Under the pieces are notes generated by a model that was not told where the DNA came from, searched no databases, and saw only the letters and a list, made by a program, of their open reading frames with translations. DNA of 44,887 nt, taken from the sequence record NC_073081.1; one strand, given 5' to 3'. Within the stretch, counting starts at the first letter, position 1. The number at the start of each line of letters is the position of its first letter. This document shows, piece by piece, positions 11,156 through 40,110 of this stretch. Source of the DNA: Escherichia phage vB_EcoS_Sponge. A program made the translations under genes and the position numbers.

Positions 11156-11234
11156 GTTATCATCTCCTATATTTGGTTGAGTTTAGTATTACACCGCTCA
11201 ACCGGGATTGCAACCAATTTATGAGGATTCAGCT

Positions 11235-13319
11235 ATGGCAGCGGGTACACTATCCGTAACGAATAACAGCAAGGCGGTTGTCGGGGTAGGCACGACGTTT
11301 ACCGCGTTTAAAGCTGGCGACTTCTTAACGCTGGTGGTAGGACAAGTACCCTACACCGTAGCGATTGCGTCCATTGAAAGCAACACTGCTCTTACTCTGG
11401 TGCTGCCGTTCGACGGCCCAACGGCGACCGGCCTTGCGTGGGACGGCGTTAAGCGCGATACCATGTCGCTGGCAACGATGGGCGTAACGGTCCAGGCGCA
11501 GAAAGCATTACGCTTGATGATCGCAGATGAAAACAACTGGCGTGCAATCTTCGGCGACGCTGAAGAAATCACGGTAACGCTACCGAACGGGCAAGTTATG
11601 CAGGGCATGTCGTGGGGATATTTGTCCTCCTTGCTGAAGGAAGTAGACCCCGTTGAGATGCGCAACCTTCAACAACAGGCCGAGACGGCGAAAAACCAAG
11701 CTGTTACCGCTAAGGGGCAGGCAGAATCGGCGCGCGACGCAGCTAATACGGCGAAGACTGGGGCGGAGACGGCACGCGACCAGGCTAACAATGCGAAGAC
11801 CGACGCGCAGACCGCAAAAGGCCAGGCCGAATCCGCGCGCGACGCCGCTAACACTGCGAAGACCGGGGCGGAGAATGCCCGCAACCAGGCACAAGGCTAT
11901 CGTGACGAGGCTGAAGGCTTTAAAAACCAGATTAACCCTTCGCAGTTTATGCAGAAGTCGCAAAACCTGAATGACGTTGCCGATAAAGCGAAGGCCCGCA
12001 CTAACCTGGCGTTAAATCGTTTCAACCAGCCGCGCGCCGATTTAACCGAGGTGTACTCTAACGACGACCGTACGGGGTACAAGCTGATTGTAAAAGATAA
12101 CGGCGACTGGGGTGCGATGAAACACGATGGTAGCGCGAATATGGCGCTAAGCATCGGTTTTGGTGGTACTGGCGGCAAGACCGGGGCTGAAGCACGTGCG
12201 TCGCTGAACGTATTTAAACGTGACCGAACATCACTAGGAGAGAGAGATCTGGATACTATCGACGGCAGCGGCGACGGTCCAGGGGTGTATTTCCAGGCGT
12301 CGTCAGCCGCGGCAACGTTAGCGCGCCACTACCCGGAAGCGACAGCGGGGATGCTGGAGGTATTCCAGCACGGGGCAAATGGTGAGTCGGGGGCTATCCA
12401 GCGCTACACGCCGTTTACGATCTTAGCTATTGCGCCGGAAGGCAGCCAGGAATATGCGCGCGCGGGAAAAGGCACATTCTATGTGCGGTCGAAAAACGGT
12501 AACGCCCCTAAATGGTCGCCGTGGTTGCCGTTTCAGACTGGTCTTTATGGTGGCGTTGTCAGTTATCCGGGTACGCAGGAGCGCTCAAGCTGGACGGATT
12601 ATGTCAACGTACTCGCACAACAACCAAGCAGCATGGGGACGTATAACATTCGTTCAGTAGGTTGGGTGAATGCCATCTCATCCCGACACCGTAACGGCAT
12701 CGGCGATGGCCGCAATTACGGTGTTGTTTTTGAGGATGGGCAAATGGCGGCTACCCACTACAAAAACGTAACAGTAAGAAAACAGGTAGCTGGTAACTGG
12801 ATTAACCCCGTCACGTTATGGCATACAGGAAACACCACGGTTGACAGCAACGGCTTTGTGAAGCGCGCATCCCCAATCGTGAAGGTGTTCGGGACCGGTG
12901 ATTTCGAGACTAACGACGAAAGCGAAGGATGCAAGGTCGAGAAAGTAGGCGTAGGAGAGTATCTCATCACCGGATGTATGGCGCTTAACGCTGATCTGGC
13001 CTGGGGTGGCGTGCGTGGCGGTATTGAGGTGCCGAGGGATATTAACGGTCAGCCTATTTTGTGGGTGGATTATGAAGTCAACGCAGACGGTAGTCTTCTG
13101 CTTAAGACGTTCCATCGTGAACATCACGACGCGCCGGTGTTCGCACGTAATACGGTGCCGGGTTACTCAAACGGCGACCCTATTGATATTCCTAACGATG
13201 TTTTTGTGTCAGTGCGTGTGGACATGCCAGAAGATTCGATTTACAACGTACGGGAGCGTGAGATGCGAGCGATTGCTGAGGTTGAGTTAGCAACGGGGGG
13301 TAAGGTGACCGAAGAGTGA
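11235..13319 (+). CDS. tail fibre protein
   Basis: 694 aa from ATG 11235 (GAGGA SD); track start 11208 is TTG. Contains Ala/Lys/Gln-rich coiled-coil repeats (GQAESARDAANTAKTGAE x2) typical of fibre shafts. Confidence 0.7.
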   Translation: MAAGTLSVTNNSKAVVGVGTTFTAFKAGDFLTLVVGQVPYTVAIASIESNTALTLVLPFDGPTATGLAWDGVKRDTMSLATMGVTVQAQKALRLMIADENNWRAIFGDAEEITVTLPNGQVMQGMSWGYLSSLLKEVDPVEMRNLQQQAETAKNQAVTAKGQAESARDAANTAKTGAETARDQANNAKTDAQTAKGQAESARDAANTAKTGAENARNQAQGYRDEAEGFKNQINPSQFMQKSQNLNDVADKAKARTNLALNRFNQPRADLTEVYSNDDRTGYKLIVKDNGDWGAMKHDGSANMALSIGFGGTGGKTGAEARASLNVFKRDRTSLGERDLDTIDGSGDGPGVYFQASSAAATLARHYPEATAGMLEVFQHGANGESGAIQRYTPFTILAIAPEGSQEYARAGKGTFYVRSKNGNAPKWSPWLPFQTGLYGGVVSYPGTQERSSWTDYVNVLAQQPSSMGTYNIRSVGWVNAISSRHRNGIGDGRNYGVVFEDGQMAATHYKNVTVRKQVAGNWINPVTLWHTGNTTVDSNGFVKRASPIVKVFGTGDFETNDESEGCKVEKVGVGEYLITGCMALNADLAWGGVRGGIEVPRDINGQPILWVDYEVNADGSLLLKTFHREHHDAPVFARNTVPGYSNGDPIDIPNDVFVSVRVDMPEDSIYNVREREMRAIAEVELATGGKVTEE

Positions 13320-13324
13320 AAGAA

Positions 13325-13348
13325 AGGGGCCGTGCGGCCCCTTTTTTT
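13325..13348. terminator. bidirectional intrinsic terminator between fibre gene and leftward operon
   Basis: aggggccg-tgc-ggcccct hairpin followed by T7 on + strand; convergent gene ends on both sides. Confidence 0.7.
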
Positions 13349-13922
13349 AGTTTGAGTTTTCCCAGTCCATTTTTCGCCGCACCAGCGGGCTTTCGTAATA
13401 TTCCTTACCGTCCACTTCCACCAAAGGCCAATCGTTCACGATCACGAATGGCTCCGCAATATCCTCGATCACGCCGCGCGCGCTATGTTGCCAGAACGAC
13501 ACCCCCACCAGAATAACACCGGCAACTCGACGAGTGAGATACTCGCGAGCGCAACGCGCCTCTACCAGTCCGCGACGGATGCCGCTGGTGGCTTTGACCT
13601 CATATGTCCATACGGCATCAATCATGTGTTCTTTGTAGTCGGGGCCGGACTTAACCTTGCGCTTGCCGACCATGATAATATCGCCGCGGTCGATAGTGTT
13701 AGCGCTAAACAGGCCAGTACGCATTAGCAAACCTTGTGGAATACAGCTACGCCCTCCCGCCTGCCCTTCGAGGTACATGCCTGCAAACATCTCGCCCAGC
13801 ACACCGACAAGACGGCTTTGCTTGCACGCGTCAGACTTGTATCGCCACTGGTCAAACTCGATGCTTGCTATCATTGCCGCCAGGTGGAATTGTTTACCCG
13901 ATATTTCATATTCGCCGTACAT
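13347..13922 (-). CDS. hypothetical protein with PD-(D/E)XK-like motif (putative nuclease)
   Basis: 191-aa ORF; segment SGPDYKEHMIDAVWTYEVK fits PD...(D/E)xK spacing; GAGGG SD. Confidence 0.4.
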   Translation of the reverse strand: MYGEYEISGKQFHLAAMIASIEFDQWRYKSDACKQSRLVGVLGEMFAGMYLEGQAGGRSCIPQGLLMRTGLFSANTIDRGDIIMVGKRKVKSGPDYKEHMIDAVWTYEVKATSGIRRGLVEARCAREYLTRRVAGVILVGVSFWQHSARGVIEDIAEPFVIVNDWPLVEVDGKEYYESPLVRRKMDWENSN

Positions 13923-13964
13923 TGTGTTGCCCTCATTGATGCGGGCCGAAGCCCGCGATTAGAG

Positions 13965-14486
13965 TTATTTAAGTGCGCCAGTCACCAGTGTTTTTTCCAT
14001 GTTACGGAAGTCTTCCGGCGTCAAGAGGATTTTAGATCCGTCTTCGCCGGTGAGTACGACCATAGGCTGTACGTCCTGATCTGCGATGCCAAAATTAGCG
14101 GCTTTAACCGTCTTGCCCTCAGATGAAGAAGGATGCCACGTCCCAGCGGAGGCGATGGGCCAACCTTTTAGGCTGTCGAATTGTGCTGCCGTTGTGTCGA
14201 TCTGAATCTCATCATGCACGGTCATGTAAGACTCGCCCAGCAGGGCGGCATACGCTACCAGGTCAACGATGTTATCTTCCTGGTGCTTACGGTGCTGGCG
14301 CACCAGCTTCAGGCAGATCAGGAAGGTCCAGGCTTCTTGCTCGGTAAGATCGCGCCCGGTAAGCGCGTTAAACACGGCGGCTACCTGTTTAGCGCTGCGT
14401 TCTTCTTTCGCGTTGTCATAGCCGTTTTCTTTCCCGCGCTGTTCCATAGTGGTGGCGGCGTTTTTGCAGTATTCGTATGCTTTCAT
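13965..14486 (-). CDS. hypothetical protein
   Basis: 173-aa ORF with AAGGA SD; no confident motif. Confidence 0.45.
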   Translation of the reverse strand: MKAYEYCKNAATTMEQRGKENGYDNAKEERSAKQVAAVFNALTGRDLTEQEAWTFLICLKLVRQHRKHQEDNIVDLVAYAALLGESYMTVHDEIQIDTTAAQFDSLKGWPIASAGTWHPSSSEGKTVKAANFGIADQDVQPMVVLTGEDGSKILLTPEDFRNMEKTLVTGALK

Positions 14487-14550
14487 GATGTTTTCCTTTT
14501 TAGTGGGAGGCGGTATTGCCTCCCGATGTGGTTAAGATACTGCAACCAAC

Positions 14551-15021
14551 CTATTGGTTGCGAGTGAATTTTGCAACGTTTATTGCGTAAATTTTCGGGA
14601 CTAAATCGCCGCACGCCCGACGAATTGCCGCGATGTTCTTCGGACAGTCTTCAATGATGACCAGTTCCGATACGTCCGCATAGCAGACCATTTTGAACAC
14701 AGCGCACGCCTTAAACTCTGGCGGCGGGGTGTCGTCCAGCATGTGGCGCATGAACAACCGGCCTCTAGGGAATACTTCCAATTGCTCGGCTGTGGTGCCC
14801 CGGCATTCTCGCTGCCGGTTGGTCAGGTACGCGATCTCGAAGCCTTGCTCTTTGTACATGGTCAGCAGCGGCAGCATATCCATGTTCAGATCTTCGCGTA
14901 CGTGCGCTCTGTGCCACTTCGCCCAAAAGGTGGATTTAGTTTTTATTCCCGGCACCAGGTCGGCGCGCGCATCGCTTGAACCGTTAATGACGCCATCCAA
15001 ATCACAAATCAGTAGTTTCAT
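14551..15021 (-). CDS. HAD-superfamily phosphatase (polynucleotide 3-prime-phosphatase / nucleotidase-like)
   Basis: N-terminal DxDGV motif (LICDLDGVI) characteristic of HAD hydrolases; GAGGA SD before ATG 15021. Confidence 0.6.
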   Translation of the reverse strand: MKLLICDLDGVINGSSDARADLVPGIKTKSTFWAKWHRAHVREDLNMDMLPLLTMYKEQGFEIAYLTNRQRECRGTTAEQLEVFPRGRLFMRHMLDDTPPPEFKACAVFKMVCYADVSELVIIEDCPKNIAAIRRACGDLVPKIYAINVAKFTRNQ

Positions 15022-15242
15022 TTTAATTCCTCAACCAAATCCGAACGAACAACTCTGGCGGAAAACTTGTTACACACAAGATGCCAATTTGCGGTTATGA
15101 CAAGCCAGCCGGTAAGGTCCAGACCCAGGATATATTCCGGACGTGACACTCGCTTCACACGATCGCGGCGTGGGTCGATGTTATAGTCTCTTTGCATTCG
15201 GTCTACTACCGCAGGGTCGCGGTCAACGATTAAGATATTCAA
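15018..15242 (-). CDS. hypothetical small protein (TTG start)
   Basis: 74-aa ORF; only TTG start at 15242, preceded by AAGGAG; overlaps the 3-prime end of the Dam gene by 20 nt. Confidence 0.3.
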   Translation of the reverse strand: MNILIVDRDPAVVDRMQRDYNIDPRRDRVKRVSRPEYILGLDLTGWLVITANWHLVCNKFSARVVRSDLVEELK

Positions 15243-15708
15243 GGAGTTCTCCTTCGCTCATTATTTCAATTTGTGCGCTGCCGATGGGTGGCGCTTCGTC
15301 AAAGATTATCAATTGCTGGCACTTGTTATTGCTAGGCCCGACTTCGCCGGTGACGGCGTGTATAAATCTAATCCGCCAGTCCAGAAGAATTATCAGGTTT
15401 GCAGTCTTCCGGGCCAGCTTCGCCCACTTCGTCGACGTGTCCTGATTCAGTAGCATGACAGTCCGGCGTCCGTGCGCTGCACACTCGACCCACGGCAGCG
15501 GATCGGAATACGGCGGATTGCACCACTTCCACCCTTTCAACTCTGACCAGTCCACATCAAGCGCGCTGTGCTCTGCCGTGAAGTAACGCGGTAGCAGATG
15601 GTTGGCGTCGCTTGCCGCCATATCGTAACGGAATCGGAACTTACGGCGCAGCGGTTTGAATAAAGCTGGCGGCGTGCGCCAGCTATCTTTTTGCTCACTC
15701 TTCTGCAT
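15223..15708 (-). CDS. DNA N6-adenine methyltransferase (phage Dam-like)
   Basis: WRTPPALF near N-terminus and catalytic NPPY motif (WKWCNPPYSD); 161 aa as typical for phage-type Dam. Confidence 0.8.
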   Translation of the reverse strand: MQKSEQKDSWRTPPALFKPLRRKFRFRYDMAASDANHLLPRYFTAEHSALDVDWSELKGWKWCNPPYSDPLPWVECAAHGRRTVMLLNQDTSTKWAKLARKTANLIILLDWRIRFIHAVTGEVGPSNNKCQQLIIFDEAPPIGSAQIEIMSEGELLEYLNR

Positions 15709-16159
15709 GACCTGGATCTATCGCGTATAAAGGGACTTTATTGCCGGTTTTCATAACGCGCTGGACGCGCTTTGACTCCTCGGCGCTCATTGGGCGCATA
15801 TCAGTGCTATAACCACCGTTTGATGTGTGCCGCCACGCTATCAGCACCAGATCTTTCCGGTCGATCTTAGACTGGCGGCCCTTCGGTCGCACGTACGCCT
15901 CGGCCCGTTTGCAATGCTCGCGCAGACATTCGGCAGTGATGCGGTTTAGCGCGACGGTGGTTGTGTACCCAGTGCGCTGCATAATACCCATCAACTCATA
16001 CAGCAGTTCGAAGCGCTCCTCTAATTCCTTGCGCGCCTTCTCCTCGCCTTCATAGCTCGCCAGGTAGGTGTCCGCCAGCGCGTTCGCGCGTTCGGCCTGT
16101 TCGCGGGCTTCGAGGCATTGCGCGGCCCAGTAATTTTTCTCTTCTTGTAAAATTTTCAT
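15695..16159 (-). CDS. hypothetical protein
   Basis: 154-aa ORF, GGAG SD, overlaps Dam start by 14 nt; predicted coiled coil at N-terminus. Confidence 0.45.
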   Translation of the reverse strand: MKILQEEKNYWAAQCLEAREQAERANALADTYLASYEGEEKARKELEERFELLYELMGIMQRTGYTTTVALNRITAECLREHCKRAEAYVRPKGRQSKIDRKDLVLIAWRHTSNGGYSTDMRPMSAEESKRVQRVMKTGNKVPLYAIDPGHAEE

Positions 16160-16402
16160 TTATTTAATCTCCGTAGTGCGGATTTCCTTGCGAGGAATAA
16201 ATTTGCCGTCTTTCTCGACCCAGCAAGTTCCGTAACGCCATTGGGTATTACGACCTGTTTGCTCGGCATATACGGTCTTGCATTCGTAGCGTTCCGTGTA
16301 GTAAATAGCCGCGGTAGGTACGAAAATACAAACGGCAAACATGAGGGTGAGTATCACCCAAAATCGAAGGTCGCCGTCGTAGTCGAAAAATAATGATCTC
16401 AT
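16160..16402 (-). CDS. small membrane protein
   Basis: 80-aa ORF with one hydrophobic segment (WVILTLMFAVCIFVPTAAIYY); stop abuts next start. Confidence 0.4.
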   Translation of the reverse strand: MRSLFFDYDGDLRFWVILTLMFAVCIFVPTAAIYYTERYECKTVYAEQTGRNTQWRYGTCWVEKDGKFIPRKEIRTTEIK

Positions 16403-16483
16403 TGTGTCGTCTCCGGGTATTAAAAAGGGCGTCCAAACCGGACACCCTCAATATAATGCAACCAATATGATTATGCAACCAAT

Positions 16484-16807
16484 TTACGCATAAAAGTTCG
16501 GGTCGCGTGCAACGTCTACCAGGTAAAGGTTGCTTATGCGGTTGCCGTAGTGCCCTGGAGTGCGCTGGCGGCACACAACGGCGAAGCCTGGAGGGATTGT
16601 ATTGCCCGTCTCAATAATCCACGCCACGCGTGCGCCGGACAGCGTCTTGCCGTTGCATTCGATACGTGTTCCGCCATCGGCAGTGTTGATGTTGCCAATT
16701 TTGCAGCCGGTGGATTTCAGGCGAATTACGCCGGTTTTGCTGTCGTAGGTGAATAGCTGGTTAGTCATTGCGACCGAAAAGTCGATGGCTTCGAATGAAG
16801 TATTCAT
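16484..16807 (-). CDS. HNH-type endonuclease-like protein (possibly degenerate)
   Basis: N-terminal F.YDSKTG.I.LK and C-terminal GNRISNLYLV resemble HNH_3-type homing endonucleases; the canonical His is not evident. Confidence 0.4.
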   Translation of the reverse strand: MNTSFEAIDFSVAMTNQLFTYDSKTGVIRLKSTGCKIGNINTADGGTRIECNGKTLSGARVAWIIETGNTIPPGFAVVCRQRTPGHYGNRISNLYLVDVARDPNFYA

Positions 16808-17499
16808 TTTAAATTTTCCTCGTTAACCGCTATCGCGAAGCCGCGCGGAGTGAGCGACCGGATTAATTTTGTGCGGGCTGATTTGCCTCCGAGGCGACTA
16901 TACTGCTTCGAGTACCCTTTTTCAACGAAAACAGGTCTCTTCTCGGGCATACGGAAGCCGTTGCCGGTCCATAAGCAGGTCAGCTTCGGATATGAGTCGC
17001 GGGCGTTGATGTATTCAGGGAACAACGGATGTACGTCATCCTCCGGCAGATATCCCCCATACTCCCACGGGTCGAACGAGTGATCAGGCTTGCGCCACTG
17101 GGTGGAAAGCACACTGCGCGGATTCTCAATCATATATGGCACTTCGAAGAAGTCACCCAGGTAAGCGGCGATCTTCGCGGTGCGCACCGCCTTAAGCTGA
17201 AAGGCTGGGTCTTTTGCACGCTTGCGCGGGAAAGCTGGAGCGCCGCTCACCGCCAGATCCGTGCACGGAGGGAACGCATAGATGATATCTGGCGTACCAA
17301 AATCGCCATTCATCGCGCGGTCCACGAAGTCCAGATCGATAAACTCATTGCGATACCGGATTCCGCGACCATAGATACGATAGTCAAGGTAAGACCCGTG
17401 ATCGGCTTCGGAGTAGTTAAAGCAATAACACTTATGCCCCATCTCGGCAGCACGCTCAATCATCAAACCGCTGCCGTCAAACAATGACCAGATTATCAT
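16804..17499 (-). CDS. compact DNA (cytosine-5)-methyltransferase-like protein
   Basis: Motif I-like LFDGSG, motif IV-like Pro-Cys (AFPPCTDLAVSG), motif VI-like ENP, C-terminal GFAIAV; only 231 aa; ATGA overlap with helicase stop. Confidence 0.55.
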   Translation of the reverse strand: MIIWSLFDGSGLMIERAAEMGHKCYCFNYSEADHGSYLDYRIYGRGIRYRNEFIDLDFVDRAMNGDFGTPDIIYAFPPCTDLAVSGAPAFPRKRAKDPAFQLKAVRTAKIAAYLGDFFEVPYMIENPRSVLSTQWRKPDHSFDPWEYGGYLPEDDVHPLFPEYINARDSYPKLTCLWTGNGFRMPEKRPVFVEKGYSKQYSRLGGKSARTKLIRSLTPRGFAIAVNEENLK

Positions 17500-18920
17500 T
17501 TGCGCGCCTTTTTAGCTTTCATGTATTCCATCAAGTCGTCTTGAATATCTCGCTTGCTGTCGCGACGCTCGGCGACCAATTCGTCCAGTGTCCCGCGCGC
17601 CTGGATAATGTAGACGAATACCGGTCGAGGGTGTCCGGCCTGCATCTGGCGAACCGGCCCGATACGTTCAACGATCTGCGAAAAGTGCTCAAAGTTCCAG
17701 GTATCGGAGAAGATTGCCAGGTGATGTCCGCCGTCCTGCAAGTTAAGGCCGTGGCCTGCCGATGCCGGGTGTGCAAACATGATGGGGATCTCGCCCCTGT
17801 TCCACGCTTCCATATCCTTATTGCCCTGCTTACCCTTACCCAACGCGACGCCGTGCGGAAATTTCTTCTTAAGACGTGCCAGGTCATGCTTATACTGATA
17901 CGCAACGAGCAACGGCGCGCCGTTCAACTCCTCCACGATACTTTCCAGCGCGTCCAGCTTCGCGTCGTGAATCTTCACCCACTCGTCGGTCCGTTCGCCG
18001 TCTTCATCCACCTTATACACAGCGCCGGAAGCAAGCTGAAGGCACTTAATTGTCTTCGACGCAGCGTTCGCCGCTTCCACTGTTCCGCTTTCCAGTTCGG
18101 CAAATAGCTCGCTTTCAAACTGGTCGTAAATCTTGCGGGCTTTCTTCGGCAGATCCACAACAACCGGCGTATATATTGGCTTGTCACATCCGAAGTATTC
18201 AGCCGCGTCAACGGTGAGGGATACATCAGACAGGCGTTGTTGTATTTCTTTCTCGGAGTTCTTTAGCGGGGCGTGCTGCATAGTGAAGCTGCCAGGCTTA
18301 ACCGGCTTGCTAATGAACCAGCGATCGGTAAATGCCTTATAACTACTGCCGAGTCGTTCGCCACCGTCGACAAACCACGTCTGACCCCATAAGTCTTTCA
18401 GCCCGTTTGGCGCTGGTGTGCCGGTCAGATTAATCCAGCGCTTGACGTGCTTATGTGCGATCGCCGCCAGTGCGCGTGCGCGCTTACTACCCTGCTTACT
18501 GCGGTAGCCTTTCAGCTTAGTGGATTCATCGGCAACAACGACCGTAAAGGGCCACGCATCGCCGTAATAGTCAACCAGCCACTCAACCACATCGTAGTTA
18601 ACACAAACCACGTTAGCGTCGCTCTCAAGCGCTGCAATACGGTCCTTCTCCGGCCCGGTGCCGTCTACGACCAGCAGGGATGAGAACCGCCATTTCTCCT
18701 GTTCCGGGGGCCAGGTGCCGGATGCAACGCGCAGCGGGGCCAGCACCAGTACGCGGTCCTCCTGGTTCGACAGGATGCCAGTCTGGAACATTTTATTCAG
18801 CGCCCACATTGTCGCGCCGGTTTTACCGGATCCCATTGTCGCCCATATATTACATCGCTTATGCTTGAGGATGAACGCGGTTATCAACTTCTGATATTCG
18901 CGGCGTCGGAATCTTGCCAT
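17496..18920 (-). CDS. SNF2/DEAD-like superfamily 2 helicase
   Basis: Walker A MGSGKTG, DEXH-like VVADESTKLK, C-terminal helicase region; start ATG 18920 (track start 19010 overlaps upstream gene). Confidence 0.8.
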   Translation of the reverse strand: MARFRRREYQKLITAFILKHKRCNIWATMGSGKTGATMWALNKMFQTGILSNQEDRVLVLAPLRVASGTWPPEQEKWRFSSLLVVDGTGPEKDRIAALESDANVVCVNYDVVEWLVDYYGDAWPFTVVVADESTKLKGYRSKQGSKRARALAAIAHKHVKRWINLTGTPAPNGLKDLWGQTWFVDGGERLGSSYKAFTDRWFISKPVKPGSFTMQHAPLKNSEKEIQQRLSDVSLTVDAAEYFGCDKPIYTPVVVDLPKKARKIYDQFESELFAELESGTVEAANAASKTIKCLQLASGAVYKVDEDGERTDEWVKIHDAKLDALESIVEELNGAPLLVAYQYKHDLARLKKKFPHGVALGKGKQGNKDMEAWNRGEIPIMFAHPASAGHGLNLQDGGHHLAIFSDTWNFEHFSQIVERIGPVRQMQAGHPRPVFVYIIQARGTLDELVAERRDSKRDIQDDLMEYMKAKKARK

Positions 18921-18924
18921 GTCT

Positions 18925-19149
18925 TTATTCCGCCTTTTTCCAGACTTCAGTTTCACTACCCCAGTTCCTCTTTGTGGCGTCGTAGTTGGTGGCGTGTCCG
19001 ACGTGGACACCGGTAGCCCGGAAGCTCTTAAATTTTTGCCAGCACACCGTCAACGGCAGCGGATCATTCATGCCTGCGATAAACCATACGCGATCGCCTG
19101 GTTTGCATTCGCCCAGCTTGGTGAGTCGGTAATGTTCTTTCATCGTCAT
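18925..19149 (-). CDS. hypothetical protein
   Basis: 74 aa from ATG 19149 with GGGAG SD immediately after a terminator-like hairpin; longer track ORF (to 19356) overlaps the upstream gene. Confidence 0.4.
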   Translation of the reverse strand: MTMKEHYRLTKLGECKPGDRVWFIAGMNDPLPLTVCWQKFKSFRATGVHVGHATNYDATKRNWGSETEVWKKAE

Positions 19150-19156
19150 GTCTCCC

Positions 19157-19179
19157 AAAAATGGCGGGACAAGCCCGCC
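19157..19179 (-). terminator. intra-operon hairpin terminator/attenuator
   Basis: On the minus strand: ggcggg-cttgt-cccgcc followed by AUUUUU, directly followed by SD and start of the next gene. Confidence 0.5.
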
Positions 19180-19186
19180 ATATTGA

Positions 19187-19360
19187 TTATTCTTGTTCTG
19201 CACGATAGCGGCGCTGCCGTTCGCGCTCTTTCTTATTGCGGCACGATTTGCACTCGGCCCGATGCCCGTCCGGGCTGCGCGCAGTCTTACCGGTGTATTT
19301 GTGGAACTGGGACAGCGGCTTGATGCAGCCGCAATTACTACAACGTTTTTCTTCAATCAT
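19187..19360 (-). CDS. small Cys4 zinc-ribbon protein
   Basis: 57 aa from ATG 19360 (GAGGA SD); CxxC...CxxC pattern (CSNCGC ... CKSC); basic C-terminus. Confidence 0.4.
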   Translation of the reverse strand: MIEEKRCSNCGCIKPLSQFHKYTGKTARSPDGHRAECKSCRNKKERERQRRYRAEQE

Positions 19361-19400
19361 TTCTAAAATCCTCGATAGTGCCAACCTGCACACTATACCG

Positions 19401-19679
19401 CTACGCGACCAATTCAGCAACCAATAAATCGCAGTCGGCTATGTTGTCGATAACACGAACGTCCGCACCGCGGCGGGCCATTCGCTCATGTTCACGTACC
19501 TGGTGCGGCTTCGGTTTTCCTCCGGGGCGCTTCACTTCGACGAACACTATTTTGCCGTTGATGATAATAATCAGGTCGGGCGCACCCGCGCGCCCCTCCC
19601 ATGCCAGTTTTCGGCAGAATCCGCCAACATCTTTCACCCGTCTCATCAGGTGGCTTTGAATCTTGCCTTCTGGAGTCAT
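19401..19679 (-). CDS. VRR-NUC domain nuclease
   Basis: 92 aa; PD-(D/E)XK signature APDLIIII...VFVEVKRPGGKP typical of VRR-NUC; start ATG overlaps polymerase stop (TAATG). Confidence 0.6.
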   Translation of the reverse strand: MTPEGKIQSHLMRRVKDVGGFCRKLAWEGRAGAPDLIIIINGKIVFVEVKRPGGKPKPHQVREHERMARRGADVRVIDNIADCDLLVAELVA

Positions 19680-22979: not shown

Positions 22980-23069
22980 TTTCCAATTCCTCATTTTCAC
23001 ATGTATCGGGGTTATTATGAGCCACCCCGTTCGGCTTGGTTGCTAATCTACTTGGTTGCGCCTAAGCGG

Positions 23070-23312
23070 TCAAGCACTTTTATTAAAAAGATTTCTGGTC
23101 ACGTAGTTGGTAGCGTTCTCGACCCAGCTTAACGGCGGTCGGTCGATGTTCTTCTCCACCCAGTCGACGGCAGCGTCACTATATCCGTCGTCAAGCCAGC
23201 GGGTCGGATGGCGAATCATCCAGGCTACCATTAACACGCCTTGCACGCAATGCAGGATAAAGCCCAGCGCGCCGAGCAAAAACATCAATAAGATCGCAAA
23301 TACTTTATTCAT
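23070..23312 (-). CDS. small membrane protein
   Basis: 80-aa ORF with two hydrophobic segments; overlaps exonuclease stop. Confidence 0.4.
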   Translation of the reverse strand: MNKVFAILLMFLLGALGFILHCVQGVLMVAWMIRHPTRWLDDGYSDAAVDWVEKNIDRPPLSWVENATNYVTRNLFNKSA

Positions 23313-24735: not shown

Positions 24736-24923
24736 TATTCCACCCTTGAAAACTGAGCTATATAATAATCGTGTTTAACATTTGCCTTCTTCGCTGCTTC
24801 GTTCATGGTTGAAGCAAGTTCGCTGGCTTGCGTCCAGCAGCTAACCCAGTTCTGATTCATAACGATTTCGGGTTGCTCATCGCCGGTAATACGGCAGCGA
24901 AATAAAACAAAGAATGTAGCCAT
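24735..24923 (-). CDS. hypothetical small protein
   Basis: 62-aa ORF, GGGAG SD, stop overlaps exonuclease start. Confidence 0.35.
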   Translation of the reverse strand: MATFFVLFRCRITGDEQPEIVMNQNWVSCWTQASELASTMNEAAKKANVKHDYYIAQFSRVE

Positions 24924-25175
24924 TTATTTTGTCTCCCAGCGGTCAATTGTTTTTGCTTCTGATGCAACGGCGAATCGAACATATTCCAGGTTGGAATCCG
25001 CCCAAATATAAAAGTCGGGATTAGTAAAGGTGGTGCGCTTAATTTGCGCGGGGGTGTTGCGGCGTTTATCAATTACGGCAACGCGCGATTGAAAGCTGCC
25101 GATGCGTTCGAATAGCCAATAATATGGGCGCTGGTCGCGGGAATCCACCGCCTCGATTAGCGTGAAGCGTGCCAT
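24924..25175 (-). CDS. hypothetical protein
   Basis: 83-aa ORF; GAGGA SD placed directly after a terminator hairpin. Confidence 0.4.
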   Translation of the reverse strand: MARFTLIEAVDSRDQRPYYWLFERIGSFQSRVAVIDKRRNTPAQIKRTTFTNPDFYIWADSNLEYVRFAVASEAKTIDRWETK

Positions 25176-25188
25176 TGTCTCGTCCTCT

Positions 25189-25215
25189 AAAAATAGGCCC
25201 GCAGATTAGCGGGCC
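25189..25215 (-). terminator. intra-operon hairpin terminator/attenuator
   Basis: Minus strand: ggcccgc-taatct-gcgggcc followed by UAUUUUU, then SD and ATG of next gene. Confidence 0.5.
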
Positions 25216-25223
25216 GGATAATA

Positions 25224-25349: not shown

Positions 25350-25353
25350 GATA

Positions 25354-25866
25354 TTAATCTTCCAGTTCGAAATAAGTTTCGACGATTTCTTTTAGCTCTT
25401 TGTGGAAGTCTTCGACGTCGTCATCTTCCAGCTTAGCGATTGATTTGATCTCGAACGATTCCAGCAGGTCGTCGAATTCGTCGTTCGCATCGTCGTCGTC
25501 ACCACCGGCAATAATCGCGGCATACTGTTTGATCTCGTCGCGCATCTCTGCCAGCGGATCGGCATCTTTCTTGCCTTTGCCTTTTGCCGGTGCTTTTTTA
25601 GACTTAGCCGGTTTTTCGTCTTCGGCATCGTCGTCATCTTCTACGACTTCTTTTTTAGCCTTACCTTTCGCCGGTGCTTTTTTAGATTTAGCCGGTTTTT
25701 CGTCTTCAGCTTCATCGTCGTCATCTTCGACAACTTCTTTTTTGGCCTTAGACGGCTTCTTATCTTCCTGTTTACCAACGGCAGCGCCAACGGCTTCATA
25801 ATGCTTTGCAATGGTTTCCAGTGCTACTACTCCGCGAGTGATCAGGTTTACGATTTGCTCAAACAT
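25354..25866 (-). CDS. first leftward early gene: acidic/lysine-rich tandem-repeat protein
   Basis: ATG 25866 with GGAGAT SD; 29-aa unit KKEVVEDDDDEAEDEKPAKSKKAPAKGKA repeated twice (87-bp DNA repeat about 25571-25744); strongly acidic C-terminus. Confidence 0.55.
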   Translation of the reverse strand: MFEQIVNLITRGVVALETIAKHYEAVGAAVGKQEDKKPSKAKKEVVEDDDDEAEDEKPAKSKKAPAKGKAKKEVVEDDDDAEDEKPAKSKKAPAKGKGKKDADPLAEMRDEIKQYAAIIAGGDDDDANDEFDDLLESFEIKSIAKLEDDDVEDFHKELKEIVETYFELED

Positions 25867-26089
25867 GGTATATCTCCGATTGGTTAAGTTTAGGTGTCGG
25901 CAGTTAACTTCGTCGGTGGCCTTAACATATTGCCAGGTTACGCGTTCTCCCGTTCGGGTAGTGGACCTGGTTATATAATCACGGTTGGGAATCCTGACAC
26001 TTCGATCCGGCCCCTGCGTTGCCCCTCTCCAGTTTGCGTCCTGCATCCTGTCTCTCCAGTTTGCGATAGATTGGTTGTCGACGGAGTGA

Positions 26090-26119
26090 ATGATAGATTG
26101 GTTGCAGGATGGGTGTCAA
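26090..26119 (-). promoter_or_regulatory. putative sigma70-type leftward early promoter
   Basis: On minus strand: -35 TTGACA (26119-26114), 18-bp spacer, -10 TATCAT (26095-26090); GCAACCAAT motif copy lies in the spacer. Confidence 0.45.
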
Positions 26120-26130
26120 CAACTAATTTC

Positions 26131-26164
26131 AAAAAAAAGCGCCGAGGCAAAATGCAACGGCGCT
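26131..26164 (-). terminator. minus-strand intrinsic terminator with no upstream gene (possible end of a short RNA)
   Basis: Stem agcgccg/cggcgct (26138-44 / 26158-64) followed on minus strand by U8 (plus A-run 26131-38). Confidence 0.5.
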
Positions 26165-26234
26165 AACCAATAAGAGACAATGAGACGGGAATTATTATTA
26201 CACGCGTGCGCGCCCGTTTCAATATCCAAAGGAT

Positions 26235-26263: not shown

Positions 26264-26294
26264 CATTGGTCATTAACCAACAGGAGACTGAATT

Positions 26295-26624
26295 ATGAAT
26301 ATCAAAGAAGCAATTGAAGTGTTATCTAATGCAATCCGCGGCGAAGCGGGTAAATCCTGGTATTACACAAATGCGGTGGATACTCTGTTATTTGAAGTGT
26401 CCAGATTATCGCGTGCTGAGAAGGAGCTTACCGCGAAGCTGGAATTGCTCAACGGCACGGCAGCAAGCAAGCTGCAAAAACACAATGAAGAAATGGAAGA
26501 ATACAAAAAACAGGTTATCCGTCTACGTGAGGAAGGTAAATCCTGGGCGATGATTGCCGAGTTGACCGGAATTAATCAGAGCACAGTGCGCTCCTGGGTA
26601 CGCAATAATAAAACTTCTAAGTAA
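26295..26624 (+). CDS. early helix-turn-helix DNA-binding protein
   Basis: 109-aa ORF, AGGAG SD; C-terminal HTH-like segment KSWAMIAELTGINQSTVRSWV; coiled-coil N-terminus. Confidence 0.5.
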   Translation: MNIKEAIEVLSNAIRGEAGKSWYYTNAVDTLLFEVSRLSRAEKELTAKLELLNGTAASKLQKHNEEMEEYKKQVIRLREEGKSWAMIAELTGINQSTVRSWVRNNKTSK

Positions 26625-28899: not shown

Positions 28900-29009
28900 A
28901 TTTTGCGCGCATTGGTTGCCGATATGTGGATTCCCATATCGCTAAAAGACTAAATTTTGCGCGCATTGGTTGCCATTTTGAGTGTTTTTATCCAGTCGCA
29001 TTGGTTGCC
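28897..29009. repeat. three direct repeats containing GCGCATTGGTTGCC (two as 24-bp units TAAATTTTGCGCGCATTGGTTGCC)
   Basis: Units at 28897-28920 and 28951-28974 plus shorter copy 28998-29009; palindrome gatatg-N8-catatc at 28921-28940. Confidence 0.8.
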
Positions 29010-29060: not shown

Positions 29061-29161
29061 CGGGACAGAAAGCGGGACAAACACGAGGCGGGACAAAGCG
29101 GGACAGCACTCCAGTCCCGCCCCGGATGGCGCGGCTTCCGGAGGAGCGGGACAGCGGGACA
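29061..29161. repeat. iteron cluster B: 5 exact GCGGGACA octamers (29072, 29088, 29098, 29146, 29154) plus partial/inverted copies
   Basis: Read directly; preceded by a TGCATAAA box at 29048-29055; lies in a ~535-bp non-coding region after the primase-helicase gene. Confidence 0.8.
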
Positions 29162-29221: not shown

Positions 29222-29433
29222 AATCCGGAGATTGCAAAATACACGGCAGCATGATGCGAAGTGCGGCCGACGACGAACTAGGCAACCAATGCAGGTTGTA
29301 TTATGCTGAGTGAAAAATGCGGTTTGCAGTCACAGCAGATAGCGATCAACTTTTTCATGCGCGTGATTAATATTGGTTGCACCCACCCAGGCACCCTGCT
29401 ATATTGGTTGCACACCAACATGAGGACAGAACA

Positions 29434-29760
29434 ATGAAAGCGATTATCTGGAATTACGCAATGGCGATGGCGAAGGCACAAGAAGCGGCGGAGTTCGCCG
29501 GTGAAGGAGCGGAAGCGGTCGAAAGACTATCGGCAGCGTGGTCCGTTGTTCGCGTCACGCAGCAGGCCATCGCCTGTATGCTGGAGCGCCGCTTCGACAC
29601 GATGGCGGAGATCCAGCCGTTGGCGAACGCAATCCAGGACTACGCGCTTGCATTTGCCCGTGAGCGCCTGGCGTATCGCTTCGGGGTCGGTGAGACGGCA
29701 GCGACAAACATCGCCCGGATTAAAGCCCAGCGCGAACTATTCGCCCAGCTTGCGAAATAA
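29434..29760 (+). CDS. hypothetical protein
   Basis: 108 aa from ATG 29434 (GAGGA SD); track start 29377 is TTG inside the repeat region. Confidence 0.45.
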   Translation: MKAIIWNYAMAMAKAQEAAEFAGEGAEAVERLSAAWSVVRVTQQAIACMLERRFDTMAEIQPLANAIQDYALAFARERLAYRFGVGETAATNIARIKAQRELFAQLAK

Positions 29761-29769
29761 GGGGCCAAA

Positions 29770-30039
29770 ATGGACCGCAGACGAGCTAAACAGCTTTCGT
29801 GGCATATTCCACTGCATTGCATACGAATATTGGCTAAGAATGCGATTGAGGGTGATTCTGTGTTCTGGAGCTATCGCGACGATGTGAAGCCACTAACGCA
29901 GACTCGCTATCTGCACCAGTTCGCCAGGGAGCACGGATTCGCCGTCAAAACATCCTTGCAACCAATTGGCATCCGTATTACATTACGCCGGAAGCCCGCC
30001 GTTGAGCGGGTAGGCAAACACTGGAGACTGAGCAAATGA
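29770..30039 (+). CDS. hypothetical protein
   Basis: 89-aa ORF; contains an internal GCAACCAAT copy (29958-29966). Confidence 0.4.
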   Translation: MDRRRAKQLSWHIPLHCIRILAKNAIEGDSVFWSYRDDVKPLTQTRYLHQFAREHGFAVKTSLQPIGIRITLRRKPAVERVGKHWRLSK

Positions 30040-32518: not shown

Positions 32519-32582
32519 ATTGCTTGACTCGCAACCAACATAGACGCCATACTGCAACCAACCAATGAGAGGAGTAATCAAG

Positions 32583-32663
32583 ATGGCACGTAAAGATATT
32601 TGGGTATTAGCGATCTGGACCACCGCGGCTTTTATCGGTATGGTTATTTGCGAATTGCTATAA
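32583..32663 (+). CDS. 26-aa hydrophobic peptide
   Basis: MARKDIWVLAIWTTAAFIGMVICELL; strong SD AGGAG 8 nt upstream; two GCAACCAA motif copies just upstream. Confidence 0.35.
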   Translation: MARKDIWVLAIWTTAAFIGMVICELL

Positions 32664-32724
32664 CCCGCCGCAATATGGACCGTGGTATATTGTCCTCGGT
32701 CCCATAATCAGGAAGTGGATTAAT

Positions 32725-33867
32725 ATGCACCCGCAAACTAAAATCACCGACGAGCAATTGATCGCCGAGTTGCAATCCGGCACTACCGCGAAAGAGATTG
32801 CGAAGAAGTACGGTCTTTCCCTACGAAATGTCTACATGCGCAAAGCCCGCCTGTCGAAGAAAGGTATTGGTCATGGTAACGATGCCGTAATCCGTAAGCG
32901 CGTTGCCGATGGCTTCGGCGTTAAGCGCGTATCCGCCCTGGTGCGCGGCAATGGCGAAGAGGTCATGTCGTGGGTTATCACTGAGCAGGACAAGGAGCGC
33001 CAGCTTGAAGCCATGCGCGCTGTTGTCGAGGGCATGAACAGCGAAATCACACCGGCAGCACCAGTAAGCGCCCCGCCAGTCCCGATCCAGGCGCTCGACC
33101 TACTCAACCTATACACTGTGTCAGACTTCCACCTGGGCATGTTGGCCTGGGGCGAGGAGACTGGCGAAGACTGGGATATGGCGATTGCCGAAGACCTGTT
33201 CTACCGCTGGTTTGTCGAAGCCTTCGCACGCGCACCGGACGCAGGCACTGCCGTAATTAATATCCTCGGAGATATGGCCCACTTTGACAGCCTTGACGCC
33301 GTCACACCGGCAAGTGGTCACGTACTGGACGCGGATACCCGCTACCAGAAACTGGTCCGCTACATGATCCGCATGGTGCGCAACGTGGTAGACCTGGCGC
33401 TGCAAAAACACCACAAAGTCAAACTGCTAATCGTCCAGGGTAATCATGACGAGTCAGGCATGATTTGGCTTGCTGAGATGTTCAATACCCTGTATGAGAA
33501 CGAGCCACGCGTCGATGTGGACACGTCCCCGGACGTCTACAAAATGGTGCAGCACGGTAAGACCACGCTATTTTTCCACCACGGACACAAAGCGCGATTC
33601 GATGTTATCGAGCAGGTTATGATCGCTAAATTTAGACAGGCATTCGGGTCGAGCGAATACAGCTACGCGCACGTAGGCCATTTGCACCACCAGAAGATTG
33701 TTGAATCCCGCAACATGATTGTTGAACAGCACAGGACGCTCGCAGCGAAAGACGCCTACGCCAGTCGTGGCGGATGGATGTCCGGTCGCAGCGCAAACGT
33801 CATCACCTATAGCGCCAACTACGGCGAAGTAGCGCGCTTAACCATTAGCCCGGAAATGTTGAAATGA
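32725..33867 (+). CDS. HTH domain fused to calcineurin-like metallophosphoesterase (Mre11/SbcD-type motifs)
   Basis: N-terminal HTH-like TAKEIAKKYGLSLRNVYMRK; phosphoesterase motifs DFH, GDMAHFD, GNHD, HHGH, GHLH in canonical order; 380 aa. Confidence 0.6.
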   Translation: MHPQTKITDEQLIAELQSGTTAKEIAKKYGLSLRNVYMRKARLSKKGIGHGNDAVIRKRVADGFGVKRVSALVRGNGEEVMSWVITEQDKERQLEAMRAVVEGMNSEITPAAPVSAPPVPIQALDLLNLYTVSDFHLGMLAWGEETGEDWDMAIAEDLFYRWFVEAFARAPDAGTAVINILGDMAHFDSLDAVTPASGHVLDADTRYQKLVRYMIRMVRNVVDLALQKHHKVKLLIVQGNHDESGMIWLAEMFNTLYENEPRVDVDTSPDVYKMVQHGKTTLFFHHGHKARFDVIEQVMIAKFRQAFGSSEYSYAHVGHLHHQKIVESRNMIVEQHRTLAAKDAYASRGGWMSGRSANVITYSANYGEVARLTISPEMLK

Positions 33868-34123: not shown

Positions 34124-34193
34124 CCCACTTAGATGGCAGGGCCGTCTCCTATGTTGCCGATGGTCGGCGCATATGAACAAAAGGGCTTATATT

Positions 34194-36130: not shown

Positions 36131-36141
36131 GGAAACCAACC

Positions 36142-39071: not shown

Positions 39072-39183
39072 CCCGTCCGCAGACCCCGACGAGGATTTGA
39101 TGATTGACGTGAAAAATATGGAATGTGGGGCGAAGCTAAGGGCGCAGGTGCTGGAGTTGCAGCAAATAATTAAGGGGCCGTAA
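38953..39183 (+). CDS. o-spanin (Rz1-like lipoprotein), overlapping i-spanin in +1 frame
   Basis: Signal peptide with lipobox LSAC, Pro-rich mature region; starts inside the i-spanin gene and extends beyond it. Confidence 0.5.
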   Translation: MLRALTALIVVLMLSACGSSNVPLMPLTESALRPPCKFDSPSADPDEDLMIDVKNMECGAKLRAQVLELQQIIKGP

Positions 39184-39194
39184 TGGCCCCTTTT
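39174..39194. terminator. bidirectional intrinsic terminator
   Basis: ggggcc-gtaat-ggcccc followed by TTTT on + strand; convergent minus gene ends at 39197. Confidence 0.65.
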
Positions 39195-39196
39195 CG

Positions 39197-39961
39197 TTAG
39201 CGCGGAATGCCGCAAATCTCGTTAAGTGTTTTCACGTCCAGCGCCACTGCCGTGGATTTTGGCTTGTCCGGGTACGGGATGAATTGCTCGACTTCAGGCC
39301 ATGCCTTAATAAGCTTCTTGTCAGTATTGTGCAGGTCCAGTACACCGGTAACGGTGAGTTTGAACGCATCATACTTCGCGCGCAACTCGCGACGGGCCTT
39401 GTCGTTGCGGTCCAGGCGCTTACAGAAGTCATGATCTGCAGGGTAGTCTACGCGACCGCGAGGGAGATATATCGGCAGCGCTTTCCCGTCCTCGTCCACT
39501 TCGCACACTGACGCGAGCATAACTGCCTCGAACCCAGGAACGATATCGCCGAGATCAGGCGCTAGCTTATTCATATATTTCTCTTCCCAGTACCCGCGAT
39601 GTATGCGGTATTGGCGACCGTCGCCGCTCAATGACAAGGTGCGAACATTGCCGCCTGCGTTGATTTCAAAGGTTGCGTTATAGACGCTGCCGATACCCTT
39701 CGGGCGGTCGGAGTTATAACTATACGTCGCCTTGTTGGTGTATACGCTGACGCCGTACATCTGCGACTGGTCATCGCGGATTAACAGGATATGCTCGCGG
39801 AGCGCTGCGAACGTGCGAATGCCTTCCGGCATACAGTCCAGCGTGATTGCGTACGCCAGGTCGCGAGAGTCCATCATGATTGTTTTGGCTTCGGTAGCGA
39901 TTTCGTGGTCGCGCAGGATGTTAGCCAGAATCTGGTTTTTAATGTCTTTTGTCAGTCTCAT
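39197..39961 (-). CDS. hypothetical protein encoded antisense within the head module (moron-like)
   Basis: 254 aa from ATG 39961 (GAGGA SD); lone minus-strand gene between spanins and scaffold, own terminator; no recognisable motif. Confidence 0.5.
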   Translation of the reverse strand: MRLTKDIKNQILANILRDHEIATEAKTIMMDSRDLAYAITLDCMPEGIRTFAALREHILLIRDDQSQMYGVSVYTNKATYSYNSDRPKGIGSVYNATFEINAGGNVRTLSLSGDGRQYRIHRGYWEEKYMNKLAPDLGDIVPGFEAVMLASVCEVDEDGKALPIYLPRGRVDYPADHDFCKRLDRNDKARRELRAKYDAFKLTVTGVLDLHNTDKKLIKAWPEVEQFIPYPDKPKSTAVALDVKTLNEICGIPR

Positions 39962-40110
39962 TTTTGTGTCCTCGTTGTTGGTGTGCAACCAATATAGTGC
40001 AACCAATACGCGGATTGCAAGCGAATTTTGCGATTATTTTTATCGCTGATAATATTAGAAGCGTGAAGTCGAGCGGGTGGCCTGCTCTGCCACAATCCCA
40101 GGGGGATAGC

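Follow-up and report, generated by a model that had tools for sequence, protein, structure and literature searches.

We describe here a short repeated element in the genome of Escherichia phage vB_EcoS_Sponge (NC_073081.1), the whole stretch of 44,887 nucleotides that we refer to as the window. The element is the 9-mer GCAACCAAT, with the 8-mer core GCAACCAA; it is intergenic and deeply conserved, and that it is real and functional is beyond reasonable doubt. Based on its positions and its conservation, we think it probable that GCAACCAA(T/C) is a compact asymmetric operator, placed in most of the sigma-70-type promoter cores and beside one iteron origin.

A first-pass annotation of this DNA had reported at least 15 exact copies of the 9-mer against a chance expectation of about 0.3. 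Our exhaustive search found exactly 15, the same ones, starting at the following positions.

11210, 14553, 16458, 16475, 19417, 26097, 28911, 28965: perfect copies of GCAACCAAT
29000, 29282, 29372, 29403, 29958, 39985, 39999: perfect copies of GCAACCAAT, continued

Composition alone predicts 0.30 copies, shuffled sequences that preserve dinucleotides contain 0.58 on average and at most 5, and GCAACCAAT is the most over-represented 9-mer in the window. Twelve of the 15 copies are fully intergenic (binomial P = 3.6e-12), on a gene map carried over from phage Over9000 by tblastn that leaves 6.8% of the window non-coding; the coding and intergenic frequencies are therefore far from equal, as the first-pass annotation had expected, and 9 of the 22 intergenic gaps of at least 30 bp hold one copy or more. 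The other three copies lie within a gene (29958), in the last codons of a resolvase-like gene (19417) and over the stop codon of 14551..15021 (14553). All four near-copies reported earlier (14542, 26070, 32531 and 32554) are present with one mismatch each, and additional one-mismatch copies are found at gene boundaries at 19405 (GCGACCAAT) and at 23035 and 23051 (GCAACCAAG). We also recovered the pairing of copies, the palindrome across a stop codon at 14542-14561, the adjacent -10-like hexamers and the mixed orientation relative to genes.

The sequence limits of the element are narrow. In 45 aligned perfect sites, taken from the window and three divergent relatives, the flanks are almost information-free, the sole preferences being against A at the preceding position and, weakly, for T at the following one. 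Because the flanks are uninformative, we define the element as a compact asymmetric 9-mer, or as the 8-mer core GCAACCAA plus T>C>G. These sites show no general palindromic partner half-site of the Cro/CI type, and the palindromic partner TTGGT-N5-ACCAA occurs at three sites only (26266, 29404 and 39978). Paired copies are spaced 9 to 54 bp apart with no preferred phase. Given this variable spacing and the lack of a general palindromic partner, the binding factor probably recognizes single 9-bp sites.

The motif is retained across relatives of very different distance. The window belongs to Dhillonvirus, a group of HK578-like virulent siphophages with genomes of about 44-45 kb, of which it is a circular permutation. 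Two large pieces of it, used as megablast queries against a phage collection, match more than 150 Escherichia phages at 90-96% identity over nearly their full length, including HK578, SSL-2009a, Over9000, jat, welsh, EC115 and others. The top 9-mer is GCAACCAAT in Over9000 and in HK578 (13 copies each), in nearly all IMG/VR Dhillonvirus loci (14 loci) and in seven metagenomic lineages with only about 72% DNA identity to the window. These seven divergent lineages were found through the small helix-turn-helix (HTH) protein discussed below, and only 56-73% of their DNA aligns to the window; their sites nevertheless lie between the same genes, in intergenic sequence that has otherwise changed. Motif positions are thus conserved in related phages, with syntenic sites in HK578, Over9000 and the divergent lineages. 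Across 22 loci, aggregate identity is 95% at motif positions versus 88% in the 40 flanking bases on each side, with near-copy 26070 the only poorly conserved one. In 15 related loci the copy that lies within a gene (29958) shows 100% identity, versus 80% for its flanks.

Within sigma-70-type promoters the sites adopt two recurrent arrangements. Class I promoters have a canonical TTGAC(N) -35, and forward copies of the motif lie within the spacer or immediately after the -10. In class II promoters the reversed copy, ATTGGTTGCNN, itself provides a TTGCNN -35, with a good -10 exactly 17 bp downstream and, usually, a second copy in the spacer or over the -10/+1. Among 72 sites from five lineages, counts that are not independent events because the sites are related by descent, TTGAC stands 14, 7 or 5 nt upstream of the site in 18, TAnnnT follows TTGCNN at exactly 17 bp in 10 (about one for each other spacing), and -10-like hexamers cluster at offsets +8 to +10, directly after the site. 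A consensus promoter scan also recovers all three class I promoters, and four intergenic consensus matches coincide with motif sites. The class I promoters of the window, together with the related site of the rightward early region, are as follows.

26119..26090, minus strand: class I promoter, leftward early, TTGACA-cccatcct-GCAACCAAT-c-TATCAT, 18-bp spacing
26097, minus strand: perfect copy in the spacer of the leftward early promoter, one base from the -10
26070, minus strand (region 26070..26119): near-copy ACAACCAAT in the leader of 25354..26046
23073..23045, minus strand: class I promoter of the single-stranded-DNA-binding protein gene, TTGACC-N8-GCAACCAAG-TAGATT-a-GCAACCAAG, 17-bp spacing
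23051 and 23035, minus strand (region 23035..23073): GCAACCAAG copies, at the spacer end and after the -10, respectively
32524..32553, plus strand (region to 32562): class I promoter after a terminator, TTGACT-c-GCAACCAAC-N8-CATACT-GCAACCAAC, 18-bp spacing
32531 and 32554, plus strand: GCAACCAAC copies, beside the -35 and directly after the -10, respectively
26266..26280, plus strand: degenerate palindromic TTGGTCATTAACCAA in the rightward early region, just downstream of the promoter and in the leader of the HTH gene

The relatives show how these arrangements vary. In the divergent lineages two abutting copies fill the spacer of the leftward early promoter (TTGAC-GCAACCAAC-GCAACCAAT-c-TAnnAT), and all seven carry a perfect GCAACCAAT in the HTH gene leader, 9 nt after a TATATT -10. 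At the equivalent of 23035..23073, L005 and L007 have a perfect GCAACCAAT. The arrangement of the 32524 promoter is conserved in L003, L005, L023, L024 and L026, and the promoter would drive a 26-aa open reading frame (ORF), a nuclease gene and the packaging genes.

The class II units of the window are the following.

16483..16450, minus strand: class II promoter-like unit, ATTGGTTGCAT-N15-TATATT, read as TTGCAT-17-TATATT
16458 and 16475, written on the plus strand: copies in this unit, the first giving the TTGCAT -35 and the second in the spacer
19425..19392, minus strand: class II unit, ATTGGTTGCTG-N15-TATAGT, read as TTGCTG-17-TATAGT, with perfect copy 19417 and near-copy 19405 (GCGACCAAT)
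29372-29405, plus strand (region 29372..29411): class II promoter upstream of 29434..29760, ATTGGTTGCAC-N15-TATATT, read as TTGCAC-17-TATATT
29372 and 29403, plus strand: copies in this promoter, the first supplying the -35 and the second overlapping the -10 and start site

The layout at 16450..16483 recurs in L005, L007 and L024. The 19392..19425 unit falls within the last codons of the resolvase-like gene 19401..19679, and its 19417/19405 pair and 17-bp spacing are retained in L003, L005, L007, L023 and L024. An equivalent of the 29372 promoter, again with 17-bp spacing, is found in L003, L005, L023, L025 and L026. Taken together, the class II equivalents in L003, L005, L007, L023, L025 and L026 keep the 17-bp spacing while the spacer sequence differs, and exact spacing kept through sequence turnover is a sign of constraint.

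Other sites stand near promoter-like sequence of a different form, at a gene end or within a gene.

39978..40020, minus strand: promoter-like unit for the minus-strand Nmad5 gene 39197..39961, TTGCAA-18-TATATT
39985 and 39999, written on the plus strand: copies in the spacer and over the -10 of this unit; 39978-39992 forms TTGGTGTGCAACCAA
11210..11218, plus strand: perfect copy in the 79-bp divergent gap between a 72-aa gene (10937..11155, minus) and the tail-fibre gene (11235..13319)
14542..14561: palindrome GCAACCAAcctaTTGGTTGC, formed by near-copy 14542 (plus) and perfect copy 14553 (minus), spanning the stop codon of 14551..15021
29958..29966, plus strand: perfect coding copy inside 29770..30039

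Read on the minus strand, the 11210 copy gives ATTGGTTGCAA-N17-AATACT, an arrangement also present in HK578. The palindrome lies upstream of 13965..14486 with no clear promoter attached.

A third context is the 534-bp non-coding stretch that follows the primase-helicase gene, where copies of a distinct 12-mer type surround a set of iterons.

28909, 28963 and 28998, minus strand (region 28909..29009): three direct origin-type 12-mers GCATTGGTTGCC, holding the perfect 9-mers 28911, 28965 and 29000
29061..29161, plus strand: six (G)CGGGACA iterons between the origin-type copies, forming a putative replication origin
29281..29292, plus strand: fourth origin-type 12-mer GGCAACCAATGC, inverted relative to the three left of the iterons

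None of these four copies has a -10 at promoter distance. This lack of promoters speaks for a binding protein rather than RNA polymerase alone as the reader of the element. The iteron sequence varies by lineage: the window and L005 have GCGGGACA, and in L003 and L007 it is of the GGTGCCA type; the flanking GCAACCAAT is constant. Iterons are clustered tandem repeats that vary with their initiator, whereas the motif is dispersed genome-wide and lineage-invariant.

Three lines of evidence, namely the varied positions of the sites, their two orientations and the promoter-free copies at the origin, bear out the preference of the first-pass annotation for operator sites overlapping promoters over a simple promoter element. 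We favor the operator because the 9-mer is conserved beyond what a -35 needs, occurs in both orientations and at several promoter positions, and is also present outside promoters. Sites in a spacer, over a -10 or over a start site are typical of repression by occlusion. If one sequence-specific DNA-binding factor occupies these sites, nearly all transcription units would come under its control, through competition with host RNA polymerase or repositioning of the enzyme. At class I promoters its binding would block RNA polymerase, giving repression or temporal shut-off; at class II promoters it would either block polymerase or substitute for -35 recognition. Since the class II site covers the contact bases of sigma region 4, the factor would have to compete with sigma or replace it there. 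The transcription units concerned are laid out as follows on the Over9000 map.

Up to 13.3 kb, plus strand: tail genes
13.3 to 26.0 kb, minus strand: block of replication, recombination and methylase genes
After 26.0 kb, plus strand: small HTH protein, primase-helicase, small unknowns, lysis, metallophosphoesterase nuclease, terminase, head and tail genes
39197..39961, reversed (minus strand) inside the head module: Nmad5 gene

The closest functional likeness overall is to the dispersed asymmetric operators of temperate phages, the C1 operators of P1 and the stoperators of mycobacteriophage L5. P1 is temperate, and C1 maintains its lysogeny as one protein controlling many operons, through short asymmetric 17-bp operators that are found in many copies genome-wide, mostly over promoters and some in direct or inverted pairs. 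The present motif is likewise asymmetric, dispersed genome-wide and mostly overlapping promoters, but it is 9 bp long, belongs to a virulent phage and reaches genera that lack the candidate regulator, the HTH protein having a narrower distribution than the motif. The L5 gp71 stoperators are also short and asymmetric, with dozens of copies in short intergenic spaces and one over an early promoter; they share with our motif the high copy number and intergenic concentration. Stoperators, however, have one orientation relative to transcription and act on elongation, whereas in the minus-strand block of the window the copies at 23035-26097 are sense and those at 14542-19417 antisense, both orientations occur in the plus-strand block too, and the motif lies in promoter cores with fixed geometry.

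Which protein reads the sites? Within this phage the best encoded candidate is the HTH protein named by the first-pass annotation, a candidate that we put forward tentatively.

26295..26624, plus strand: HTH protein gene, 109 aa; variable N-terminal part, then a long helix, then an invariant HTH at the C-terminal end

That the protein is a genuine HTH protein was upheld; as the binder it is left in question, since its family has a narrower distribution than the motif and neither Edwardsiella phage eiAU-183 nor Klebsiella phage VLCpiS11a encodes a member. Residues 65-105 match the Pfam families HTH_23, Sigma70_r4_2 and HTH_28, with E = 8e-7 for Sigma70_r4_2 and weak matches to extracytoplasmic function (ECF) sigma models, both below cut-offs. 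An AlphaFold2 (AF2) model (predicted local distance difference test score, pLDDT, 87) shows a 57-residue helix followed by a helix-turn-helix that superimposes on those of LuxR, resolvases and IS transposases, and PDB sequence and fold searches gave only generic tri-helical HTH matches, none full-length. Among 14 family members the N-terminal half is almost unalignable and residues 47-104 are nearly invariant, the HTH itself (residues 80-104) being invariant across very different N-termini. The gene is the first of the rightward early operon, beside two motif-bearing promoters, and in most lineages its leader contains a site. Sites are present in the leftward early promoter, adjacent to the HTH gene, and divergent lineages have them in the rightward one as well; most sites are elsewhere in the genome. 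Homologues occur only in Dhillonvirus-like phages (24 clusters in 5.8 billion proteins; 153 phage records), and IMG/VR searches for distant relatives through the primase-helicase or the HTH protein returned only Dhillonvirus-like contigs. As a separate observation, the HTH protein has two alleles, about 77% identical, among E. coli Dhillonviruses that are otherwise 90-98% identical, and that of HK578 has a third, longer N-terminus. The second HTH protein proposed in the first-pass annotation, 32725..33867, did not hold up: it matches calcineurin-like phosphoesterase and DNA-repair exonuclease families over its whole length (Pfam and PHROGs; PHROG 704, E = 4e-161), and some database records label the gene "HTH domain protein".

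Several points count against this operator reading and its candidate binder. We infer the sign of regulation from site position, and the timing of the two classes is likewise an inference. No promoter can be recognised at several sites, namely 29282, 29958, the three origin-type copies and the 14542-14561 palindrome. In HK578 the putative recognition helix of the HTH protein carries substitutions and the HTH leader has no site, yet 13 motif copies are retained. Moreover, the motif extends to other genera, which we reached through comparison of the primase-helicase. In eiAU-183, GCAACCAA is the top 8-mer (23 copies versus 1.3 expected); at least 14 of the 20 copies listed are intergenic, nine follow the primase-helicase gene, and class II promoters have the same form, TTGGTTGCAT-N15-TATAGT. 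VLCpiS11a has 13 copies of GCAACCAA, 10 of them intergenic, and in both phages the core is as enriched as in the window. Serratia phage Tsm2 is also enriched for the core, with 12 copies that are mostly coding, with close pairs at 9373/9386, 9464/9487 and 20593/20614, and two pairs lie in the 3' end of the primase-helicase gene. Profile searches with heuristic filters off detected no homologue of the HTH protein in any of these three phages, in which its gene position is taken by an unrelated XRE/Cro-type protein. Nor did searches at BLAST sensitivity reveal a phage protein that accounts for the motif distribution among the four motif-bearing genomes, six motif-less genomes and one metagenomic contig. 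The six motif-less relatives, which show no enrichment of the core, are phiEap-2, Hafnia phage TS33, K1H, LSPA1, PhiSTP2 and Pantoea phage AH01.

Several other phage proteins were considered as binders and rejected. The XRE/Cro-like proteins encoded at the HTH gene position in eiAU-183, VLCpiS11a, Tsm2, PhiSTP2 and AH01 have recognition helices that differ in all five, with no separation by presence of the motif. The C-terminal domain of the primase-helicase is no more similar among motif-bearing than among motif-less phages. In a phyletic profile of the window genes across the four motif-bearing and six motif-less genomes, two genes fit: the PF05869 N6-adenine methyltransferase (15223..15708), in 4/4 and 0/6, and Nmad5 (39197..39961), in 3/4 and 0/6. 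Both profiles are broken by a VLCpiS11a-like metagenomic contig that encodes Nmad5 (89% identical to the VLCpiS11a protein) and the methyltransferase (57% identity) and holds no GCAACCAA in 20.7 kb spanning the early, origin and replication regions. An AF2 model of Nmad5 (pLDDT 70) has no fold match in the PDB, and a deletion of Nmad5 is viable (PMC11846954). Queries with the ORFs of eiAU-183 and VLCpiS11a gave no further binder candidate, and an IMG/VR scan for three clustered GCAACCAA copies was dominated by unrelated tandem coding repeats. The possibilities that remain are a host protein conserved in the Enterobacterales, non-homologous phage regulators acting on inherited sites, or a small or fast-evolving factor that escaped detection.

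Because eiAU-183 and VLCpiS11a share the core motif and have no homologue of the HTH protein, the binder is left between phage and host candidates, and we hold the HTH protein and a conserved host protein to be about equally likely. The host candidate, a possibility we entertain without favoring it, would be a protein conserved across the Enterobacterales whose sites several unrelated phage genera have, each independently, kept or acquired in promoters and beside the origin. It would explain why the site does not change from genus to genus: phages of E. coli, Edwardsiella and Klebsiella whose replication proteins are only about 45% identical have one 8-mer core as their top or near-top word, at BLAST sensitivity no phage protein follows the motif distribution, and a constant GCAACCAAT stands beside lineage-specific iterons. 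Host boxes behave in this way in known systems. DnaA acts at origins and as a transcription factor, and host boxes such as those of DnaA and IHF adjoin the iteron origins of plasmids and phages, much as the invariable 9-bp asymmetric box described here adjoins lineage-specific iterons and is present in promoters as well. The motif differs in matching, by inspection, neither of these two consensus sequences, and in being missing from the second iteron cluster of the window described below. No E. coli factor is known to have this site; the consensus sequences of Fis and of sigma-54 elements do not match either. The PdhR/FadR-type GntR box TTGGT-N3-ACCAA, which shares a half-site with the motif, has 0 matches in the window, and we rejected it since the three palindromic versions present have N5 in place of the N3 spacing that is needed. 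Close relatives with identical or related hosts, namely K1H (E. coli) and PhiSTP2 and LSPA1 (Salmonella), are without the motif, which is compatible with a host factor and lends it no positive support.

A broader proposal, which we regard as rather unlikely, is that virulent siphophages of enterobacteria from three or more genera (Dhillonvirus, Eiauvirus and VLCpiS11a-like Guernseyvirinae) share one 8-9-bp box as a common code for taking over transcription. The box would be read by a host DNA-binding protein yet to be characterised, or else by phage proteins that are not homologous and reached the site by convergence. Such a factor would shut off TTGAC-type early promoters and take over -35 recognition at the second promoter class; in Dhillonviruses the sigma-region-4-like HTH protein would be the -35 reader.

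We consider it decidedly unlikely that the motif is instead a core promoter element, an alternative or extended -35 read by a phage-modified RNA polymerase through sigma appropriation, with the sigma-region-4-like HTH protein replacing sigma-70 region 4 at class II promoters. TTGCNN lies exactly 17 bp from a good -10 in the same 10 of the 72 Dhillonvirus-like sites, related by descent, and in 5 of 33 in eiAU-183 and VLCpiS11a, and this idea could draw on the sub-cut-off matches of the HTH protein to Sigma70_r4_2 and ECF models and on conservation of the full 9-mer, which far exceeds the needs of a -35 hexamer. However, the -35 is not where most sites are found: they occupy spacers, leaders and the -10 or start region, in one orientation or the other, or adjoin the origin without a -10. 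Class I promoters, moreover, already possess canonical TTGAC -35 boxes. The sigma likeness is limited to a generic HTH of about 40 residues that also matches those of transposases, LuxR and resolvases, and class II promoters occur in eiAU-183 and VLCpiS11a, which have no homologue of the HTH protein. The known model for such a mechanism is sigma appropriation by MotA/AsiA of phage T4, with a MotA box at middle promoters. The likeness concerns the class II subset of sites, where the box takes over from a consensus -35 and keeps a constant distance to a good -10 downstream; a second, TTGAC-type class could be shut off simultaneously. The motif differs in retaining a usable TTGC -35 core and in lying also in spacers, in leaders and beside the origin, in both orientations. 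No MotA or AsiA family was found by Pfam and PHROG scans of 20 window proteins, a subset of all ORFs.

It is very unlikely, in our view, that the motif serves primarily in replication, as a set of accessory sites at the origin that the initiator (the primase-helicase) or a factor loading the helicase would use, the promoter copies being secondary. The attraction of this idea is that motif-bearing phages all have their densest cluster at the 3' end of the primase-helicase gene or beyond it, with six copies in 530 bp in the window, nine in eiAU-183, three in VLCpiS11a and, in Tsm2, four inside the 3' end of the gene itself; a distinct 12-mer subclass, moreover, brackets the iterons in inverted orientation. 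However, the second iteron cluster (699-954) is without any copy, most copies are in promoters remote from either cluster, and the winged-helix-like C-terminal region of the primase-helicase is highly divergent between Dhillonvirus and eiAU-183 though the motif is shared.

An epigenetic target or signal tied to the PF05869-type methyltransferase, which the profile across the ten related genomes might suggest, can be all but discounted, as the motif-free contig encodes the enzyme, the intergenic concentration and fixed promoter geometry would be left unexplained, and characterised PF05869-family members are described as methylating GATC, which is not part of the motif. A role at the RNA level was also deemed unlikely since copies beside ribosome-binding sites occur in both orientations; no Rfam family attains its gathering score anywhere in the window.

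A number of further features lie close to motif sites. On the minus strand at 16415-16450, immediately downstream of the class II -10, there is a terminator-like hairpin (GGGTGTCC...GGACGCCC, then a T-run), conserved in L005, L007 and L024. A transcript from the adjoining promoter would start with this hairpin and a U-tract, an arrangement that might serve for attenuation or to stabilise the 5' end. Between the two early promoters, also on the minus strand, a promoter-like site with an upstream TG (26222..26194, TTGAAA-17-AATAAT) precedes, by about 30 nt, a strong terminator hairpin (fold z = -2.8) that ends in a U8 tail. This region (26125-26222) would yield a transcript of about 60 nt with no Rfam match, the 5' part of which (GUCUCAUUGUCUC) is conserved in all divergent lineages and holds AUUGGUUAGC, a relative of the motif with one insertion. 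The 26-codon ORF directly downstream of the 32524 promoter (32584-32664, plus strand, MARKDIWVLAIWTTAAFIGMVICELL) is unannotated; it encodes a hydrophobic peptide, has a good ribosome-binding site and is followed by the nuclease gene.

In the replication context, a second (G)CGGGACA cluster is found at 699-954, its 10 copies lying in the non-coding gap of 383 bp that precedes the tape-measure gene, and the whole window has 21 copies versus 6.2 expected; the two clusters look like two origins, or an origin plus a cis-acting replication region. A 33-bp unit, CT(T/A)AAAGA(T/C)TAAATTTTGCGCGCATTGGTTGCC, is repeated 54 bp apart at 28888-28974. Its sub-motif GCAAAATT / AATTTTGC also stands beside other motif copies (14565 and 40020), AAAATTTTGC is among the top 10-mers of VLCpiS11a, and the unit or its sub-motif may be a second regulatory element. 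Finally, ACGGCAGC / CGCTGCCG and related 8-9-mers are 10- to 15-fold over-represented both in vB_EcoS_Sponge and in each of the nine related genomes examined (L043-L047 and L168-L171), with or without the GCAACCAA motif; they fall within coding sequence, every reading frame being represented, and in the window the plus strand carries 21 of 28.

In the open-access literature we found no published description of the motif or of Dhillonvirus, HK578 or eiAU promoters, and no account of the timing of Dhillonvirus gene expression. Dhillonviruses are among the commonest E. coli phage isolates (177 records in the phage collection, including BASEL members), and for this group the motif yields a map of about ten predicted regulated promoters in two classes, a candidate regulator and a putative origin. 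The unexpected part is that the box persists in genera lacking the candidate regulator. This persistence implies either an unrecognised host factor used by several phage groups or a regulator that was replaced while the operator network was kept, and either outcome would be of interest for phage regulation and for the engineering of therapeutic phages.

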